A program made the position numbers and the translations under genes. The notes below the pieces were generated by a model, which searched no databases, was not told the DNA's origin, and saw only the letters and a program-made list of their open reading frames with translations. A stretch of 46,924 nt of DNA from a virus (lineage: Duplodnaviria > Heunggongvirae > Uroviricota > Caudoviricetes), in IMG/VR virus record IMGVR_UViG_2695420343_000002; one strand, written 5' to 3'. Of this stretch, positions 15,345 through 41,126 are shown piece after piece; position 1 is the stretch's first letter; every line of letters starts with the position of its first letter.

Positions 15345-16423
15345 CAGAACGGGTCCTCCTGTACTCTGGCTTTTTTCTTTTTCCGCGCGCCGGGGGCTTC
15401 GGGTTCAGGCAGATAAGCATCAGGTGGGCCGACACGGATTTCCGTCAGGGTGCCGTTCTGGTCCTGAGTAAACGTGACTTCCGAAACAAGCAGTTCGGTA
15501 TTGTCGAAACCACAGACCGGATCAAAGACAATCACCCGCTGGTTGGGCTGCCACAGCGTACCGTTACCCTGTCGCCAGCCCTGCACCACATAGGTGGTTT
15601 CATCCGTCCGCGCCGCCCGTTGTCGGGCTTCAAAGTCCGCACGGGCAATACAGCCTGCCCCCGTAGCCTGCCCTGTCTGCCTGATATACATCGGACGGTA
15701 ACGGGCAATAAATGCGTCCTCTGTGCGGGCCCGCAGCGCGGTGGTGGTGGCCTCACCGAAATCATCGTCGTTTCCGGCACGCTGCCCCGCCACCTGGTAA
15801 ACAGAAAACCGCTCCCGGATACTCTTCTCCGTATCGCAGGAAAGGATGTTTTCCCCGAGTACCAGCGCAGTATGTGCCCGCGTTGAGCCAATACCGCCAA
15901 TCACCAGCCTGCCGTGCGGGTCGTCGTAAGCCAGTGCCTGCTGCTGACCGAGTATTTTGTTGATTACCTCAATCACCGTTTCACCGTGATCAGGCTGGAC
16001 ATCAGGAATAACACCCGACGGCGCACCGTTGTTCACCACCTCAATGCCGAAAGGCGCAGCAAGCGCCTGCGCAATCTGTACCAGCGATCGTCCGTTAAAC
16101 TGTGTCGGTTCGGCTGCACAGTCAATCAGGTCAGCCGTCAGACTACGTCCGGCAATACCGGTGCTGACCGAACGGGCATCGTAACGAACGGGGGTCGCCT
16201 CCACCCAGCCGGTGATCACCAGCTCATCACCAATCAGCACTTCCACTTTTGAACCATTTTTAATGCGCGGCTGAAGCGTGGTGATACCCTCATCTCCCGG
16301 CCACTGGCGGGTGATCTCCACGCTGAAATCCCGCGCCAGCCGTTCAATACCGGCACCGATGCGCACCGATGTCCAGCCATTCCACTCCCGGCCATTTACC
16401 CGTAGCGTGACGTTATCGTTCAT
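15344..16423 (-). CDS. Mu gpP-like baseplate/tail protein
   Basis: 359 aa; follows the DNA-circulation gene as in Mu. Confidence 0.6.
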   Translation of the reverse strand: MNDNVTLRVNGREWNGWTSVRIGAGIERLARDFSVEITRQWPGDEGITTLQPRIKNGSKVEVLIGDELVITGWVEATPVRYDARSVSTGIAGRSLTADLIDCAAEPTQFNGRSLVQIAQALAAPFGIEVVNNGAPSGVIPDVQPDHGETVIEVINKILGQQQALAYDDPHGRLVIGGIGSTRAHTALVLGENILSCDTEKSIRERFSVYQVAGQRAGNDDDFGEATTTALRARTEDAFIARYRPMYIRQTGQATGAGCIARADFEARQRAARTDETTYVVQGWRQGNGTLWQPNQRVIVFDPVCGFDNTELLVSEVTFTQDQNGTLTEIRVGPPDAYLPEPEAPGARKKKKARVQEDPF

Positions 16424-17880
16424 TGCACTGGCACCTTCAGAGGGATCACCGGCACAAAGCCGGGATGCGTAATGGCATTACGCCGGATAATGTCCGCGTC
16501 ACGCGCCGCGTTATCAAACCAGGTCGCCGCCAGCACCAGCGCGGGTAAGACCTCATCCGGCGTGCGCTGAATGATCCGAGCAGACTGTTCAAGGCGCGTG
16601 TTGATATCCGCATTCAGATCTGCTTTCACCCGGCGCAGCGCCAGAAACAGCGCATCACTGGTTGTACGGGACAACTCCTTATCAATTGCCGTATTCAGTG
16701 TGTCGCGAATGTCAGTCAGTTCTTCCCACGTTGGCAGGTCAACCGTGTTTTTCACCGCCGGTGCATTGTTCAGTGCCGGATGCGTGACGGAAGGCCAGCC
16801 GGTGCTCTGCGCGGAAGTTGTTGACTGCCCCACTGCGGCATTCTGCATCACCGCGGAAGTTGTTGACTGCCCCACTGCGGCATTCTGCATCACCGCGGAA
16901 GTTGTTGACTGCCCCACTGCGGCATTCTGCATCACCGCGGAAGTTGTTGGCGCAGGCAATCGGGTGACGGCATACGCCGCTTCGCTGATTGCGGTCGCAC
17001 GAAGGGTGCTGGCAACCACGTTACGCTGCTGCGTCGCCGTGGCGGTGGTTTTACTGTCCGTTTTCCAGACGCCGCGCGGTTGCAGATCGCTGCCGAGGCT
17101 GACACCGGAAAGCGTTTTGATCATGGTGACCAGGTCGCTGGCGTTACCATAAAGGCGTTTCCCGGTACGCCACATTTTCTGCACCTGCTCAACGAAATTT
17201 TTGCCTGACGATGGCGGCGGCAGAAGTACCGAGATATCCCCCTGCAACAGCCTGGCGGCATCCGATACGGCAGAATCCACCACTTTCATCGCATCAGAAA
17301 CATACCCCAGCATTATGCTGGCATTACCGATAACGTCGTTCTGCACGAAATCCGCCACACCATCGATACTGAAACCGCTGAAGCTGTCACTGATGCAGTC
17401 ATCCAGTGCAGAACAGGATGACATCAGCGTCTGCGCCGTCGCCGCACCTGATGTGGGGTAAGAGAGTTCTCCCGCTTCGACAAACTTCAGGTCAAAGCGG
17501 ACAATACGCCCTTCACTTTTCGATGTGCTGACCCGAACCTCTCCGTCAACACAGACTTTCAGCTCACCGTAAGTCGGGTGGACAAGCGTGCCGGGACCGG
17601 GTTTATTCAGCGCGTCAATCAGGCGATCGCGCTGGTCAAAGCAGTCATCGCCCACCACATAAGCCGTGATGGACGGGCGGAAAGTGACTTTTCCCAGATC
17701 TTCGGTATAGGGTTTGTCGCGGTTCGGATATTCGTGTGTTTCCACACGGCGACCTGTTCCCGCACTTTCTTCTTCAACCTTAAACGGCACACCGCGAAAT
17801 GACGCGTCCTGAAGCCTGTCTTTCCACGTCATATAAACTCCGGATATAAAAAAGCCCACCGAAGTGGGCATGAAAGACAT
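16420..17880 (-). CDS. DNA circulation protein (Mu gpN-like)
   Basis: 486 aa directly downstream of the tape-measure region; contains three in-frame repeats AVMQNAAVGQSTTS. Confidence 0.65.
   Translation of the reverse strand: MSFMPTSVGFFISGVYMTWKDRLQDASFRGVPFKVEEESAGTGRRVETHEYPNRDKPYTEDLGKVTFRPSITAYVVGDDCFDQRDRLIDALNKPGPGTLVHPTYGELKVCVDGEVRVSTSKSEGRIVRFDLKFVEAGELSYPTSGAATAQTLMSSCSALDDCISDSFSGFSIDGVADFVQNDVIGNASIMLGYVSDAMKVVDSAVSDAARLLQGDISVLLPPPSSGKNFVEQVQKMWRTGKRLYGNASDLVTMIKTLSGVSLGSDLQPRGVWKTDSKTTATATQQRNVVASTLRATAISEAAYAVTRLPAPTTSAVMQNAAVGQSTTSAVMQNAAVGQSTTSAVMQNAAVGQSTTSAQSTGWPSVTHPALNNAPAVKNTVDLPTWEELTDIRDTLNTAIDKELSRTTSDALFLALRRVKADLNADINTRLEQSARIIQRTPDEVLPALVLAATWFDNAARDADIIRRNAITHPGFVPVIPLKVPVQ
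16811..16950. repeat. 42-bp tandem repeat, about 3.3 units, in-frame within the gpN-like gene
   Basis: GAAGTTGTTGAC recurs at 16814, 16856, 16898 and 16940. Confidence 0.85.
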
Positions 17881-36428: not shown

Positions 36429-36818
36429 TCAGGCGGCTGCACCCGCCGGTTTCTCGTACTTACTGATAGTGATCTCGACCTTCCCTTCCGGGATAACCGG
36501 TCCCCACTCCACCAGCATTCTTTTCACCTGACTGTCGTCTTCCCACACACCCGCGTGGGTCAGGGCGTCAAACAGCGCCTTGTTATAGTTGTCCAGATCG
36601 CGGATCCGGTTATCCGGAGGAAACAACACGATCTCCACTGAAGCAGGTGCCGACGTTGGTTTTGGCAGACGACGTAACTGCTCAACTATTGCTGCACACG
36701 CCGCGCTCTGGAATTTGCGCCCCGCCGCGCTTATCAGGCTCTTACCAGCAAACGCCCCTTTGTTGGGGTGTCGCCAGTACGTGTTCACGCTGGGCGGGAA
36801 AGGCAGGATCAGCTTCAT
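36429..36818 (-). CDS. rusA: Holliday-junction resolvase RusA
   Basis: 129 aa; RDLDNYNKALFDALTHAGVWEDDSQV matches the RusA catalytic core of E. coli RusA. Confidence 0.8.
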   Translation of the reverse strand: MKLILPFPPSVNTYWRHPNKGAFAGKSLISAAGRKFQSAACAAIVEQLRRLPKPTSAPASVEIVLFPPDNRIRDLDNYNKALFDALTHAGVWEDDSQVKRMLVEWGPVIPEGKVEITISKYEKPAGAAA

Positions 36819-37141
36819 ACTTTCAGGCCTCTCTCATGTAACCAGTGAGTTGCACGCAGCCTTGCGTTTTCCTCACCGGCAAGCAGTGAGCGGATAATTC
36901 CGACCACCTCGCTGTCGTCGTCCTTCATCGCGGTATGAATCTTTATCCCCCGGGCCACGCCACGCTTTATCGTGATGACGCCTTTTTTCTCCAGTGCGCG
37001 AAGATGTTCTACCGCAGCATTCACTGAACGGTATCCCAGCATGGTTGCCACCTCCTGATTGGTTGGCGGGAAGCCACGTTCTTTCTGGTAAGAAATCAGC
37101 ATATCCAGCACCTGCTGCTGGCATTGAGTTAATGTCGTCAT
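36815..37141 (-). CDS. LexA DNA-binding-domain-only protein (no S24 peptidase domain)
   Basis: 108 aa aligning to LexA residues about 1-75 (LTQCQQQVLDML...GFPPTNQEVATMLGYRSVNAAVEHLRALEKKGVI...ARGI); no Ala-Gly cleavage site or Ser/Lys protease domain. Confidence 0.7.
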   Translation of the reverse strand: MTTLTQCQQQVLDMLISYQKERGFPPTNQEVATMLGYRSVNAAVEHLRALEKKGVITIKRGVARGIKIHTAMKDDDSEVVGIIRSLLAGEENARLRATHWLHERGLKV

Positions 37142-37791
37142 GCCGCCATCTCCCTGACCAGTTTTTCTGCCTGCTGGCGAACCTGCGCCAGAAAGGCCTC
37201 ACCACATGCCTCAAGTTCATCGCGCCCGATGTAGCTGATTGCCGGTCCCTTCCAGGTCTTGTCGAAAACAGCAATAGCACCAGCGAAGAAAGCGCCTGTC
37301 GGCACCTGCTTCTCATCCTTCGGGATAAACCAGGCAGGCAGTTCAAAACCAATACGCCCGCGAATAAAAGCAATATGATCTGCATCTTCCGGCCACCACA
37401 CTTCGCTGGTGGCAGCTTTGATCAGGAAAACATAGCGCCCGCCTTTATCACGCATGGCACTGGCATGCTTCATGATGTAACGCATGCCGGTGATGTATTG
37501 CCCCTCATGCTGACTGGCGCGGCTGTATGGGGGATTACCAAAGGCAGCACCTTTAAGCTCCGCAAGGCGTTCTGACCAGTCATGCGCCAGCGCGTTGTCT
37601 TCCGCCGTGTAATACGCAGCACATTTGGCGTTATCACCGTCAGTGAACAGATCCAGAACAAACGGGCCAAACAGGGTGTTAATTCCCCAGAAAATGTTGT
37701 CCGGCGTGCGCCACTGATCGCCCACTTCCTTCAGTTCATGGGCTGGTTTGTTCCGCAGTTCCGCCAGCGCCTGGCAATATTTATTACTCAT
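37138..37791 (-). CDS. DNA N6-adenine methyltransferase (phage Dam-like)
   Basis: FGNPPYS catalytic motif; likely start MSNKYCQ at 37791 overlapping the upstream stop (track ORF extends to 37824). Confidence 0.75.
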   Translation of the reverse strand: MSNKYCQALAELRNKPAHELKEVGDQWRTPDNIFWGINTLFGPFVLDLFTDGDNAKCAAYYTAEDNALAHDWSERLAELKGAAFGNPPYSRASQHEGQYITGMRYIMKHASAMRDKGGRYVFLIKAATSEVWWPEDADHIAFIRGRIGFELPAWFIPKDEKQVPTGAFFAGAIAVFDKTWKGPAISYIGRDELEACGEAFLAQVRQQAEKLVREMAA

Positions 37792-38285
37792 TAAGCCCCC
37801 ACGTAATTCCCTGAGAGATACCACTCTTCACCTGATGCAGCCCGCTTACTGCTTTTCCGTAAACACCGTTCACGACGCGCCAGAAAATTGTTTCGTTCTG
37901 GCTGGGAGTGGCTTTCACGGAATGCCGCCATCCACACCGTTGCAGCACGACGGTATAAGCCCCTCGACTCCAGTTCTTCAGCCTGGCGGGTCAGGCACAA
38001 AATCACCCGGGGGTCGTTAGTGCCGACATAGAACTTGCGCACAGGTCTGGTTTCACGAACTGGTTGTGGTTCCGGCTCCTGCGCTCTCTCAGTCAGGCGC
38101 GAGAAATGTCTGCGTGTATCTCCTTCACAACGGTGAGCCACACGCCCACTCTGACGTAACTTGCTTGCTGACTGCAGAACGCGCTGCCGTGAGTAACCTG
38201 CAAAAGCATCCGCAATGTCTCCGGAAGTACACCCCGGATGGGCTTCAATGAATTTCTGAACTTCATTCAAAAGACTCATGATCAC
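37791..38285 (-). CDS. Hypothetical protein, possibly PerC/YfdN-like
   Basis: 164 aa; LYRRAATVWMAAF region; position between the initiator and Dam as in KplE1. Confidence 0.4.
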   Translation of the reverse strand: MIMSLLNEVQKFIEAHPGCTSGDIADAFAGYSRQRVLQSASKLRQSGRVAHRCEGDTRRHFSRLTERAQEPEPQPVRETRPVRKFYVGTNDPRVILCLTRQAEELESRGLYRRAATVWMAAFRESHSQPERNNFLARRERCLRKSSKRAASGEEWYLSGNYVGA

Positions 38286-39223
38286 CCCCTGAATCCTGCC
38301 GGGATCTGGCTGTAGTCCACGTTGTCGTAACTGGATTTGAAGTACGGATCTTCACGTTTTTCTGTGTATGTGCTGACGGACGGCGATAAGCGCAGGGAAA
38401 GCTCATCCCATTTTTCCCGCAGCTTCGACGGGCTGAGCACGTTACGGCACCAGAACGGATCGCGGCTGACGCGGCTGTACATCTCGCAGATTTGTTTGTG
38501 AGTACGACCATCCTGCACACACATCAGGCGAATTTCGTTTGCCCAGGCTGTCCAGTTCGGTTCTTTGGGACGAACCACCTCGCCGTCACATTCGGCAGCC
38601 TGCTCGTACAGGGCGATGATTTTTTTCCAGAGCCACTGTGCGCAGGTCAAATCATCCTGCGTCCCCCACTGGCGTTTTTTAGGGCTGAATACAACCGCAT
38701 CAGGATGGCGAGTTAAAAAATCCTGTTCAGCCGTCTGCGTGTCCGGTTGCGAAGCGTCCGGACGAGAAGGTTTTTTATCTGACGGATCATGTTTTGATTT
38801 TACTGACGGATCCCCGCCAGATTCTGACGGGTGAAAACCCGCTTTTTTGCCAGATTTCGACGCATCAAATTTTGACGGGTCAGATTTTGATGCGTCAGAT
38901 TTTGACGGGTCAGAATCTGACAGTTGAGAAAATGCCGCTGCCTGAAGCTTCGCAACGTTAAGCTGATAAACATTCGACGCATTGCGGTTACCCTGGCGAC
39001 GCGCCTTACGCGTTAACCAGCCTTCTGCTTCCAGCCGTGCGATAGCCGTTCTGACGGTACTCATCCCCGCGCCAATCTGGCGGGCAATGGTTTCAATTGA
39101 TGGCCAGCACACACCTTCGTCATTACTGAAATCAGCCAGGCGGGCCATAATTGCCACGCTGGATAATTTCATGCCTGACGCTGCGCAACCATCCCATACA
39201 TAGCCGGTTAATTTAGTGCTCAT
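38282..39223 (-). CDS. Replication initiator O-like protein (N-terminal HTH) with internal iteron repeats
   Basis: N-terminal [17 protein letters not shown]...TIARQIGAGMSTVRTAIARLEAEGWL; central low-complexity DSDPSKSDASKSDPSKFDASKS encoded by tandem DNA repeats. Confidence 0.65.
   Translation of the reverse strand: MSTKLTGYVWDGCAASGMKLSSVAIMARLADFSNDEGVCWPSIETIARQIGAGMSTVRTAIARLEAEGWLTRKARRQGNRNASNVYQLNVAKLQAAAFSQLSDSDPSKSDASKSDPSKFDASKSGKKAGFHPSESGGDPSVKSKHDPSDKKPSRPDASQPDTQTAEQDFLTRHPDAVVFSPKKRQWGTQDDLTCAQWLWKKIIALYEQAAECDGEVVRPKEPNWTAWANEIRLMCVQDGRTHKQICEMYSRVSRDPFWCRNVLSPSKLREKWDELSLRLSPSVSTYTEKREDPYFKSSYDNVDYSQIPAGFRG
38777..38922. repeat. Iteron-like direct repeats (candidate origin inside the initiator gene)
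   Basis: About 8 copies of (A)TTTTGACGGGTCAG-like 15-bp units; three consecutive units at 38868, 38883 and 38898. Confidence 0.6.
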
Positions 39224-39571
39224 GACCGACCTCTATTTCCCTGAATTTACGACGAAACTGTTCGAGCGGACTGAAGCACTCATGCTCATAGCCTTCGCGG
39301 AGGTAGATAACCCGTTGTGTTTCCGGTTCCCAACGAATGACTCTGACGGGCACTCCGTAGTGATCTTTGAACCAGCGGTTAACTTGTCGCAAAGGACTGT
39401 CTCCTTCTGCCGGTTGAAATCCCCCACAGCCCACTCTGCAAAGCTGTGGGTTACAATTTCCCTGTCACCTGGTACATTCACTGCATAGCAATACTCCACC
39501 TTCGCTTTTCCACCCGGTACAGGAAGCGCAATCAGTTGCGAGCGACGGTAGTGTGTTGTTAAACTGTTCAT
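39213..39571 (-). CDS. Hypothetical early protein, apparently frame-broken
   Basis: N-terminal half in track ORF 39233-39571, C-terminal half in 39213-39434 (GTG start in track); frames meet at a C5/G5 run at 39421-39425. Confidence 0.45.
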
Positions 39572-40152
39572 GCGTTAGTTTCTCCACAACCAGAAGCAAT
39601 CGACGCCACGACGCCCGGAGCTGCACACTCGCGGGCGTTACTCTTTTCCGGCGCACAAAAAACACGAAATAACAGTGTTAAATGCTCCTGCCACTTCGCC
39701 ATTACTTGGTAGCTGTTCTCTTCGATTTGCTCACGCTCAGCTTGGTCAATAACTCCATCAGCAGTTGCCTTGCGTAAGTACTGGGAATGCTTGCCAATCC
39801 ATTCTATTGACTCCATCAGCCGCTGATTAATGTCACCATTGTCAATGTCATCAATGACCACCAGCGGCACAAACACCCCATTACTACGACGGGCTATTGC
39901 ATCTGTTACATGCCTGGTACCACTGGCATCCTGTAAAACCATGGCCCACTCAAGTGGAAAAATTTGATCCCCACCGCTACGCAGTCTGTTATGCAATTGA
40001 TCTTTTGCTGGGGTGATATCATCAGATTTATACAAACCAAGAATTTCTGCTGCTTCCTCATAGCCATGAGGTAAATCAGCAATCGTTCTTCGTATTGCTG
40101 CCACCAGCCATGCTGGTTGTTTATCAACTTTCCATTCAGGTTCTTTACCCAC
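39568..40152 (-). CDS. CII-like / YdaT-family early regulatory protein (putative)
   Basis: 194 aa directly downstream of the cro-like gene in the rightward early operon; call is by position and family recollection. Confidence 0.45.
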
Positions 40153-40179: not shown

Positions 40180-40377
40180 TTATGCCGCAGCACTGTTAGT
40201 CTTTTGATATAAAGACACGTCAACTTTCAGTTTCCCGTTAGTAATTTTTTCTAACTGGTACGCTCGGCCTTCAGGAATAATCTCAGGCCACTCTGAAACA
40301 GACGGATGCTTAATACCTAGGGCTTCGGCGGTTTTACAAACTCCGCCGAAATAATTAATCACGTCGGATTTCCGCAT
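40180..40377 (-). CDS. Cro-like HTH protein (YdaS family)
   Basis: 65 aa; GGVCKTAEALGIKHPSVSEW pattern; divergent from cI across an operator-rich spacer. Confidence 0.75.
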   Translation of the reverse strand: MRKSDVINYFGGVCKTAEALGIKHPSVSEWPEIIPEGRAYQLEKITNGKLKVDVSLYQKTNSAAA

Positions 40378-40404: not shown

Positions 40405-40475
40405 CAGAAATGTAGGATATCCAACATACCAATGTCAAGAATCCTACATGGGCATGTGGTAGGATTGCCTACATG
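40405..40475. promoter_or_regulatory. Operator cluster between the cro-like gene and cI
   Basis: TGTAGGATATCCAACA at 40411-40426; inverted AATCCTACA/TGTGGTAGGATT at 40439-40465; GTAGGATTGCCTACA abutting the cI start. Confidence 0.5.
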
Positions 40476-41126
40476 ATGAACATGAGTGATCGTATTCGCC
40501 AAAGGCGAAAAGAACTGAACCTGACACAACAAGCACTGGCTGATTTGACTGGTGTGAACCGTGTCACGGTTACTGGATGGGAAAAGGACGACTACCAACC
40601 AAATGGAGCCAACCTTCAAGCCCTAGCCAACGCACTTAAATGCGATCCTCTGTGGCTTGTTAGCGGAAAAGGCTCGCCTGAACCAAAGATAAATCTAAAA
40701 CCTGAAATATTCGCAGTTAAAAAAGTCCCCCTCATCTCGTGGGTTCAGGCGGGTTCATGGACAATGACGGAGCCTGGTGTCAGGAAAGAAGATGCTGAAG
40801 AGTGGGTTTATACTACCGCCCTTGTATCAGAAATGGCATTTGCACTACGGGTCCGTGGTGATTCAATGACCAATCCCCTCGGCTCACCATCGATACCAGA
40901 AGGTTCTATCGTTATCGTAGAGCCAGATATTATTGATACAGAGTGTATTAACGGAAAAATCGTTGTTGCCCATATCAATGGTGGGCAAGAAGCGACACTC
41001 AAAAAATTTGTTGAGGACTGGCCGAACAGGTATCTCGTCCCACTAAATCCTAACTATAAAACTATTGAATGCGGTGAGAACTGCAGAATAGTTGGTCTTG
41101 TCAAACAAGTAATAATGGATTTTTGA
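40473..41126 (+). CDS. cI: CI-type prophage repressor (HTH_XRE + S24 LexA-like peptidase)
   Basis: 217 aa; LTQQALADLTGVNRVTVTGWE HTH; VRGDSMTNPLG Ser motif and K in LKKF for autocleavage. Confidence 0.9.
   Translation: MMNMSDRIRQRRKELNLTQQALADLTGVNRVTVTGWEKDDYQPNGANLQALANALKCDPLWLVSGKGSPEPKINLKPEIFAVKKVPLISWVQAGSWTMTEPGVRKEDAEEWVYTTALVSEMAFALRVRGDSMTNPLGSPSIPEGSIVIVEPDIIDTECINGKIVVAHINGGQEATLKKFVEDWPNRYLVPLNPNYKTIECGENCRIVGLVKQVIMDF

Follow-up and report, generated by a model that had tools for sequence, protein, structure and literature searches.

The replication origin of phage lambda is situated midway along gene O (PMC7466680, PMC3349717), and the sequence records of lambda and phi80 annotate the O- and gp15-binding sites at an equivalent place, between the DNA-binding and the C-terminal domains. 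A comparable element is described here for a 46,924-nucleotide (nt) stretch of Caudoviricetes DNA (IMG/VR record IMGVR_UViG_2695420343_000002, referred to at its full length as the window). It consists of eight TGAY-NN-RTCA units, read on the plus strand at 38780-38927, inside the minus-strand replication initiator gene of a lambdoid prophage. Judged from sequence comparisons, these repeats are probably iterons recognized by the initiator's own winged-helix domain, forming the origin of an SfII/SfIV/CPS-53-type lambdoid prophage. This assignment is favored because the units are clustered beyond chance, constrained at the DNA level, tied to the winged helix and located at the position of the lambda and phi80 sites. 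The arrangement is a variant of the lambda scheme and falls outside the lambda-O N-terminal family.

As in lambda, the putative initiator sites of the window lie inside the initiator's own gene, in linker-coding DNA, each with internal dyad symmetry, and the C-terminal domains of the two initiators are homologous. The two also differ. The four iterons of lambda are 18 bp long and spaced at about 20-24 bp, while the window has 10-bp cores (10-12 bp conserved) in a 15-bp period plus three spaced units; the lambda iterons are followed directly by a 38-bp tract of 20% GC, in contrast to the patch of at best 30% GC that lies over the distal units of the window; the lambda DNA-binding domain belongs to Phage_rep_O and that of the window to HTH_36; and the P gene that follows O in lambda has no counterpart here. 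Gene 15 of phi80 carries four annotated gp15-binding sites (36663-36739 of JX871397) at a position equivalent to that of the window repeats, but neither its N-terminal domain nor its iterons, which are of the GGAAA/TTCCC type and spaced at about 21 bp, are related to those of the window, and it has a P analogue, gene 14, which the window lacks.

A short coding segment is also similar in the three phages. Just to the right of the AT-rich tracts, lambda at 39160-39189 (L088, 661-690) and phi80 (L082) at 36782-36811 read TCG TCA GAG AAT TCT GGC GAA TCC TCT GAC (SSENSGESSD), which resembles CCG TCA GAA TCT GGC GGG GAT CCG TCA (PSESGGDPS) of the window. From this likeness, the two segments may represent a shared ancestral origin or linker piece.

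Plasmid iterons are typically about 17-22 bp long and recur with a period of about 22 bp; they are found outside the rep gene, together with DnaA boxes and an AT-rich region. Like the iteron plasmids of the RepA, pi and TrfA type, the window combines a winged-helix initiator with direct repeats whose number varies among relatives. It departs from them in the 15-bp period, in the location of the repeats inside the gene and in having no AT-rich block; no search for DnaA boxes was made. The likeness of the CPS-53 remnant of E. coli K-12 to the window is by gene names only. Another comparison is with the "O-only" lambdoid phages, 34 of 314 Enterobacterales lambdoid phages according to a 2025 survey, by which none of them has been studied and their replication is not understood (PMC12315714). 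These resemble the window phage in carrying an O homologue without a helicase or loader gene, and no origin, iterons or DnaT-like tail are described for them in that work.

Repeat units and codon constraint in the linker

The initial annotation had described about eight TGACGG(G/A)T-centered copies within the initiator gene. This count is borne out, since five copies match TGACGG[GA]T exactly and three are degenerate. Exact TGACGGRT occurs 11 times in the window against 2.75 expected, a number reached in none of 100 shuffles, and five of the 11 matches fall in one 131-bp stretch, all on the same strand. Likewise, eight of the ten window matches to TCAAAATCTGAC (at most two mismatches) lie within 38816-38921. 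The last five units are exactly 15 bp apart from start to start. The earlier statement of three units in perfect 15-bp phase thus holds as to the phase, and is more accurately put as five units in register, of which two are exact and 30 bp apart. The period-15 array is also recovered by Tandem Repeats Finder (38851-38914, 4.3 copies, 81% matches).

On the coding strand the unit of the tandem array is TCT GAC NNR TCA AAA, and its core is the palindrome TGAC-NN-GTCA, over which the inverted repeats I1-I10 were detected, reflecting dyad symmetry within the units. Two sub-elements are distinguishable: the G copies (TGACGGGT) make up the class-specific tandem array and the A copies (TGACGGAT) correspond to the distal pair. 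The repeats behind the TGACGG(G/A)T consensus are thus real, but the consensus is not a single motif, as it merges these two kinds of copies. Every unit lies in the frame of the minus-strand initiator open reading frame (ORF), and together they encode residues 101-150, SDSDPSKSDASKSDPSKFDASKS...GGDPSVKSKHDPS. The low-complexity Asp/Ser/Lys linker that had been read from the translation is confirmed for these residues, which are disordered in the AlphaFold model.

No other iteron-like array or repeat cluster was found in the window. Its only other tandem array, at 16810-16949, is unrelated; it is a perfect 42-bp repeat (3.3 copies, 100% match) in the minus-strand ORF 16420-17880, a gene of the structural region whose 486-aa product contains three copies of TTSAVMQNAAVGQS encoded by the repeat.

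Codon usage was compared among relatives. A scan of one genome per species gave 80 loci, of which 61 non-identical loci of the window's N-terminal class were used for the codon tests. Among their genera are Escherichia, Citrobacter, Enterobacter, Kosakonia, Kluyvera, Buttiauxella, Pantoea, Providencia, Yersinia, Rahnella, Ewingella, Tatumella and Rosenbergiella, all Enterobacterales. At conserved amino acids, 14 columns of the linker block were set against 65 columns of the winged-helix domain in the same genes. The frequency of the commonest codon is 0.93 in the linker block and 0.55 in the winged-helix domain (Mann-Whitney p = 7e-8), with codon entropies of 0.26 and 1.45 bit, respectively. 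Eight codons of the block (TTT, GAA, GAT, TCA, GTA, TCA, GAT and TCA) are 100% invariant. The preference is evident for individual residues as well: Ser is encoded by TCA or TCT in 86% of cases in the linker versus 21% in the winged-helix domain, Lys by AAA in 98% versus 58%, and Val by GTA in 70% versus 16%. When sequences are compared in pairs, identical residues share the same codon with a frequency of 0.88-0.91 in the block and 0.39-0.45 in the winged-helix domain, although the amino-acid identity of the block (0.71-0.74) is no higher than that of the winged-helix domain.

The pattern within the units follows the same rule. The tandem unit is preserved as DNA across the 61 loci, yet its middle codon varies freely at the first and second positions (CCG, GCA, ACG, GGG, CGG, GTG and others), so that Pro, Ala, Thr, Gly, Arg, Val and other residues are seen, while the flanking wobble bases are fixed. 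At the second Ser codon the residue changes (TTT, CCT, ACT, TAT, TGT) and the third-position T is kept. The conserved block has the coding-strand consensus TTT nAC CCg nCA GAA TCT GGn GGg GAT CCG TcA GTA, in which the TTT, GAA and TCT codons are 97-100% invariant. That amino acids change more in the block while synonymous changes are far fewer implies an overlapping, non-protein constraint, and the codon data indicate that the linker repeats are selected as DNA and not as a peptide.

Specificity classes, exchangeable modules and distal sites

Within the HTH_36 family three classes, all with a 15-bp period, can be defined by recognition helix and repeat unit. Class A combines the helix STVRTAI with TGAC-NN-RTCA, class B combines TTVSAAI or NTVTAAI with TTGACCCCTCAA, and class C combines STVITAI or STVIGLI with TGAACGTYCA, a perfect palindrome in the form TGAACGTTCA. 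In class B a single 12-mer is present in both orientations and in strict 15-bp register, the forward copies encoding D-P-S and the reverse copies E-G-S; at locus L013, forward copies begin at nt 356, 371, 401, 416, 446 and 461 of the gene, with reverse copies beginning at 386, 431 and 476. In class C the same DNA is translated as SERS in one genome and as PETER in a second. The occurrence of the same duplex sequence in both orientations and with different peptides is explained only by a reader of duplex DNA. From these alignments, the co-variation of the units with the recognition helix is suggestive, not statistical.

The repeats also move together with the domain presumed to read them. In 57 of the 80 loci only aa 1 to ~168 are shared with the window protein and the C-terminal domain differs; phage phiNP matches 38745-39222 only, and phage mEp460 matches 38282-38781 only. 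In mEp460 an unrelated N-terminal domain is joined to the shared C-terminal domain at SRPDASQPD and is accompanied by repeats of its own (ATC RGG TCA AAA YG). By these three sets of matches, a DNA-binding domain is inherited along with repeats of its own. The winged helix and the repeats form one exchangeable recombination module and the C-terminal domain another, and embedded repeats seem to be general in these modular initiators. Taken with the synonymous constraint and the two-orientation 12-mer, this co-inheritance upholds the lambda-like arrangement of iterons in linker-coding DNA that had been proposed. The mEp460 record, mEp460_4F5 (L091, 1501-2481, minus strand), shows the linker repeats ATC AGG TCA AAA TGC, ATT GGT TCA AAA CGA and ATC GGG TCA AAA TGG, and its linker also carries ACAGAGAAT three times.

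The distal pair behaves differently from the class-specific array. It is kept down to synonymous bases in classes A, B and C and in the outliers L018 and L057, and none of its GAT, TCA and GTA codons varies across the 61 loci (100% invariance). GATCCRYYA occurs about twice per gene in the three classes, and GATCCRTCAG is found in the window only at the distal pair. Class A has its GATC sites 24 bp apart, and class B 18 bp apart. The distal units are one base apart from the class A units (GAT for GAC), and the TGA-N4-TCA core is common to all classes. In related loci a gene for Dam, another adenine methylase or a C5-cytosine methylase, recognized from N-terminal sequences, often lies directly after the initiator. 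SfIV, which has no phage methylase, retains the distal sites. Through the two invariant GATC sites, firing of the putative origin may be tied to Dam methylation or SeqA.

Initiator architecture, DnaT-like tail and gene context

The best Pfam match of the initiator is HTH_36 at aa 23-70 (39014-39157; E 4.3e-11), and Phage_rep_O is not among the matches at E up to 0.01. Over its full length (residues 1-313) the protein matches PHROG 391, "replication initiation O-like", with E 8e-136 (profile positions 1-298 of 298). In an AlphaFold model built on 25 relatives, aa 1-103 adopt the helix and strand order of a winged helix, aa 102-159, which cover the repeat-encoded Asp/Ser/Lys linker, are disordered (pLDDT <50), and aa 162-280 form a helical domain (pLDDT 84-95) followed by a disordered tail. 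Foldseek matched the N-terminus to generic MarR/ArsR-type winged helices (E about 1e-3) and to no specific initiator structure. By BLASTP the C-terminal domain is 31% identical to lambda O (E 7e-26) and 36% identical to phi80 gp15 (E 4e-25), with the N-terminal domain unaligned in both comparisons. The designation "O-like initiator" therefore holds for the C-terminal domain and not for the DNA-binding domain. Some relatives of the window protein bear the database name "Replication protein 15".

The last nine residues of the protein, SQIPAGFRG, match the C-terminus of E. coli K-12 DnaT (SQIPPGFRG) at eight positions. Pairwise alignment to DnaT covers these nine residues only (E 0.009), with no other significant segment, and the window initiator has no DnaT family match in Pfam or NCBIfam; the label "primosomal protein I" thus rests on the nine-residue tail match and not on domain homology. 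At least 51 of the 80 related loci have a tail of the IPxGFRG type (47 found by script, plus L022, L027, L032 and L033). In those examined the next gene is PerC-like or a DNA methyltransferase, as judged by N-terminal sequence and confirmed by Pfam for L023; the sole exception is L068, where an IPxGFRG tail is followed by a DnaC-like gene. Initiators with other tails have other neighbors. Those ending in ...HWNSPEAWENTL (L008, L013 and L059) and L009 (tail ...DGIENDLVSAGVLP) are followed by a Pfam Phage_lambda_P gene (E 1e-51 to 1e-62), and L073 (tail ...GGTDDDFI) by a DnaC-like (IstB) gene. No lambda-P gene follows an IPxGFRG-tailed initiator in the set checked. This correlation suggests that the tail substitutes for the P partner, and SQIPAGFRG is a candidate host-recruitment motif in its place. 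In the passages retrieved, a 2026 preprimosome structure paper mentions no role for the extreme C-terminus of DnaT.

The initiator gene is located in the early-right operon of the prophage (Table 1). Neither a P nor a DnaC nor a helicase gene follows it according to the ORF list and Pfam, the neighbors being PerC-like, Dam, LexA-like and RusA. The protein of phage vB_EcoM-720R4 is 100% identical to the window initiator, and those of Shigella phages SfIV and SfII are 98.9% identical. Relatives are annotated as "primosomal protein", "DNA replication protein O", "O protein family" or "helix-turn-helix domain-containing protein". In named, isolated phages (SfII, SfIV and others) the module is the sole recognizable replication gene. 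In several E. coli genomes the RefSeq name of the gene downstream of the initiator is yfdN, a PerC-family regulator; yfdN is a gene of the K-12 CPS-53 prophage. A plasmid search for a natural mini-replicon returned only megaplasmid prophages or mislabeled chromosomes, and in two 15-kb records from this search the initiator gene is split into fragments. The literature searched yielded no experiment on the window phage or any close relative and no description of the proposed origin; the SfIV and SfI genome papers are silent on the origin, and literature matches to the exact site sequences were unrelated primers only.

Table 1. Coordinates of the initiator gene, its predicted elements and the adjoining genes in the window
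Feature	Position	Strand	Remarks
Initiator gene	38282-39223	-	313 aa; N-terminal winged helix, disordered linker, lambda-O/phi80-gp15-like C-terminal domain, disordered tail
N-terminal winged-helix domain, coding region	38924-39223	-	aa 1-100; presumed iteron reader
C-terminal helical domain	38384-38740	-	aa 162-280; homologous to lambda O and phi80 gp15 C-terminal domains
C-terminal peptide SQIPAGFRG	38285-38311	-	8/9 residues as in E. coli K-12 DnaT
Module junction	38745-38781		coding ...DKKPSRPDASQPD; recombinant relatives change partner here
Most AT-rich 40 bp of gene	38767-38806		30% GC; overlaps distal units; candidate weak unwinding patch
Distal pair	38780-38813		GATCCGTCA-type units; kept in all winged-helix classes
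Unit TGACGGATCA	38780-38789	+	distal; contains GATC 38785-38788
Unit TGACGGATCC	38804-38813	+	distal; contains GATC 38809-38812
Unit TGACGGGTGA	38825-38834	+	isolated; coding strand TTT CAC CCG TCA GAA TCT GGC; opens highly conserved block
Class-specific tandem array	38851-38927		five units; starts 38858, 38873, 38888, 38903, 38918
Unit CGACGCATCA	38858-38867	+	tandem array
Unit TGACGGGTCA	38873-38882 and 38903-38912	+	tandem array, two copies
Unit TGATGCGTCA	38888-38897	+	tandem array
Unit TGACAGTTGA	38918-38927	+	tandem array
Dam methylase	37138-37824	-	then LexA-like, then RusA
PerC-like	37791-38285	-	after initiator gene
DUF4222	39213-39434	-	then initiator gene
CII/YmfL-like	39568-40152	-
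cro-like	40180-40377	-
cI-like repressor	40473-41126	+

Proposed origin function and rival readings

If the repeats are the iterons of an origin, replication could proceed as follows. Induction would start transcription of the rightward operon (leftward in window coordinates), from which the initiator is made. Its N-terminal domain would then bind the TGA-N4-TCA cores, five at a 15-bp period followed by three spaced ones, giving a dense nucleoprotein array similar to the lambda O-some. The array, aided by transcription through it, would destabilize nearby DNA, for which the 30%-GC patch is the only candidate. Finally, the lambda-O-like C-terminal domain and the DnaT-like tail would recruit host DnaB-DnaC without an intermediary, the phage lacking a P gene. 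A more extended version of this scheme is offered tentatively, as a possibility with well under an even chance: the array would be the origin of a P-independent lambdoid replicon in which the DnaT peptide plugs the origin complex into the usual host partner of DnaT (DnaC-DnaB or PriA/PriB), and the GATC sites together with the methyltransferases provide methylation-controlled firing.

Several observations weigh against an origin at this site. The AT-rich unwinding region that the initial annotation had suggested looking for immediately downstream of the repeats did not materialize in lambda-like form anywhere in the gene; the AT-richest 40 bp overlap the distal repeats, are at about the 2nd percentile of GC among the 40-bp stretches of the window, and reach 30% GC compared with 20% in lambda. 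The region also forms a strong single-strand hairpin, the 181 nt of the minus strand at 38760-38940 folding at -55.2 kcal/mol (z = -5.06), with none of 200 shuffles as stable. Among relatives the number of units ranges from about 0 to 9, and some proteins, up to 99% identical, lack the tandem array and keep the distal GGDPSV...DPS block; these array-less relatives are P0015, P0016, P0018, P0029 and P0034, the last on 128 Salmonella contigs. A 15-bp spacing places neighboring sites on nearly opposite helix faces, while known iteron origins have about 21-24 bp. The three-class co-variation comes from few loci (class B, n=7; class C, n=3). Moreover, "DPSV...DPS" is invariant as protein too and all units share one frame, so that some protein-level selection may act on the distal pair.

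Two of these observations also suit a chiefly regulatory role, in which the repeats would be initiator sites for autorepression by roadblock or for copy-number control by pairing and firing would take place elsewhere in the phage. The absence of a strong AT-rich unwinding element beside the repeats and the existence of close relatives without the tandem array fit this possibility, as does the fact that constraint and co-variation show the behavior of binding sites and not firing. It is nevertheless considered unlikely, because the window has no second repeat cluster or iteron-like array, the position is that of the annotated lambda O and phi80 gp15 sites in initiators that share the C-terminal domain, and lambda-type sites serve both roles, the lambda origin being in mid gene O (PMC7466680, PMC3349717). 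It is much harder to maintain that slippage has simply produced a low-complexity linker, with selection on a flexible acidic/Ser peptide only and functionless DNA. The region does encode a disordered linker, its units are all in frame, and their number varies by multiples of five residues, as slippage predicts; but synonymous sites are far more conserved than those of the folded domain while block residues vary, the codons settled on (TCA, GTA) are rare ones, and in sister classes one DNA sequence encodes different peptides and is present in both orientations. This explanation is strongly disfavored and is given very little credence.

A single-strand element, either an mRNA hairpin acting on translation or stability or a single-stranded DNA hairpin for primosome assembly or priming, would account for the z-score of the 181-nt fold, and the DnaT-like tail hints at primosome proteins. 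Taking into account that both the single-strand hairpin and the cruciform potential follow automatically from tandem palindromic units, that unit number and central bases vary so that no fixed structure is conserved, that the distal block is conserved yet lies outside the centroid hairpin, and that the co-variation is with a winged helix that binds double strands, such an element is regarded as very improbable. The chance that a reader other than the initiator (SeqA, Dam, another host protein or a neighboring phage regulator) is responsible, at least for the distal GATC pair, is likewise considered slight. The pair is common to the three classes and so does not co-vary with the initiator, its GAT codon is invariant with GATC preserved, and methyltransferase genes very often follow the initiator gene. 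On the other hand, a one-base difference from class A and the shared TGA-N4-TCA core mean that the initiator may read both kinds of unit, the sites persist in SfIV without a phage methylase, and the GATC spacing is not the same in classes A and B.

Other constrained elements were rejected. A sigma-70 promoter scan of 38500-39300 was negative, which eliminates an internal promoter, and the one terminator-like hairpin, at 38828-38841, shows no conservation among relatives. ORFs do run through the repeats in other frames, but the freely varying positions and the palindromic arrangement in two orientations are those of a duplex site and not of an overlapping gene.

The origin-iteron reading bears on a widespread replication module, since 1576 of 5426 complete E. 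coli genomes carry the initiator gene with a coverage of at least 80%, and it also occurs in the Shigella serotype-converting phages SfII and SfIV. The analysis supplies a candidate origin with sites defined at the level of bases, the specificity classes A, B and C, and a candidate host-recruitment peptide, which together make the replication of loader-less O phages (PMC12315714) directly testable. The locus is at the same time a clear case of codons dictated by an overlapping DNA signal, and this signal matters for annotation, for dN/dS analyses (comparisons of nonsynonymous and synonymous substitution) and for the recoding of such genes.

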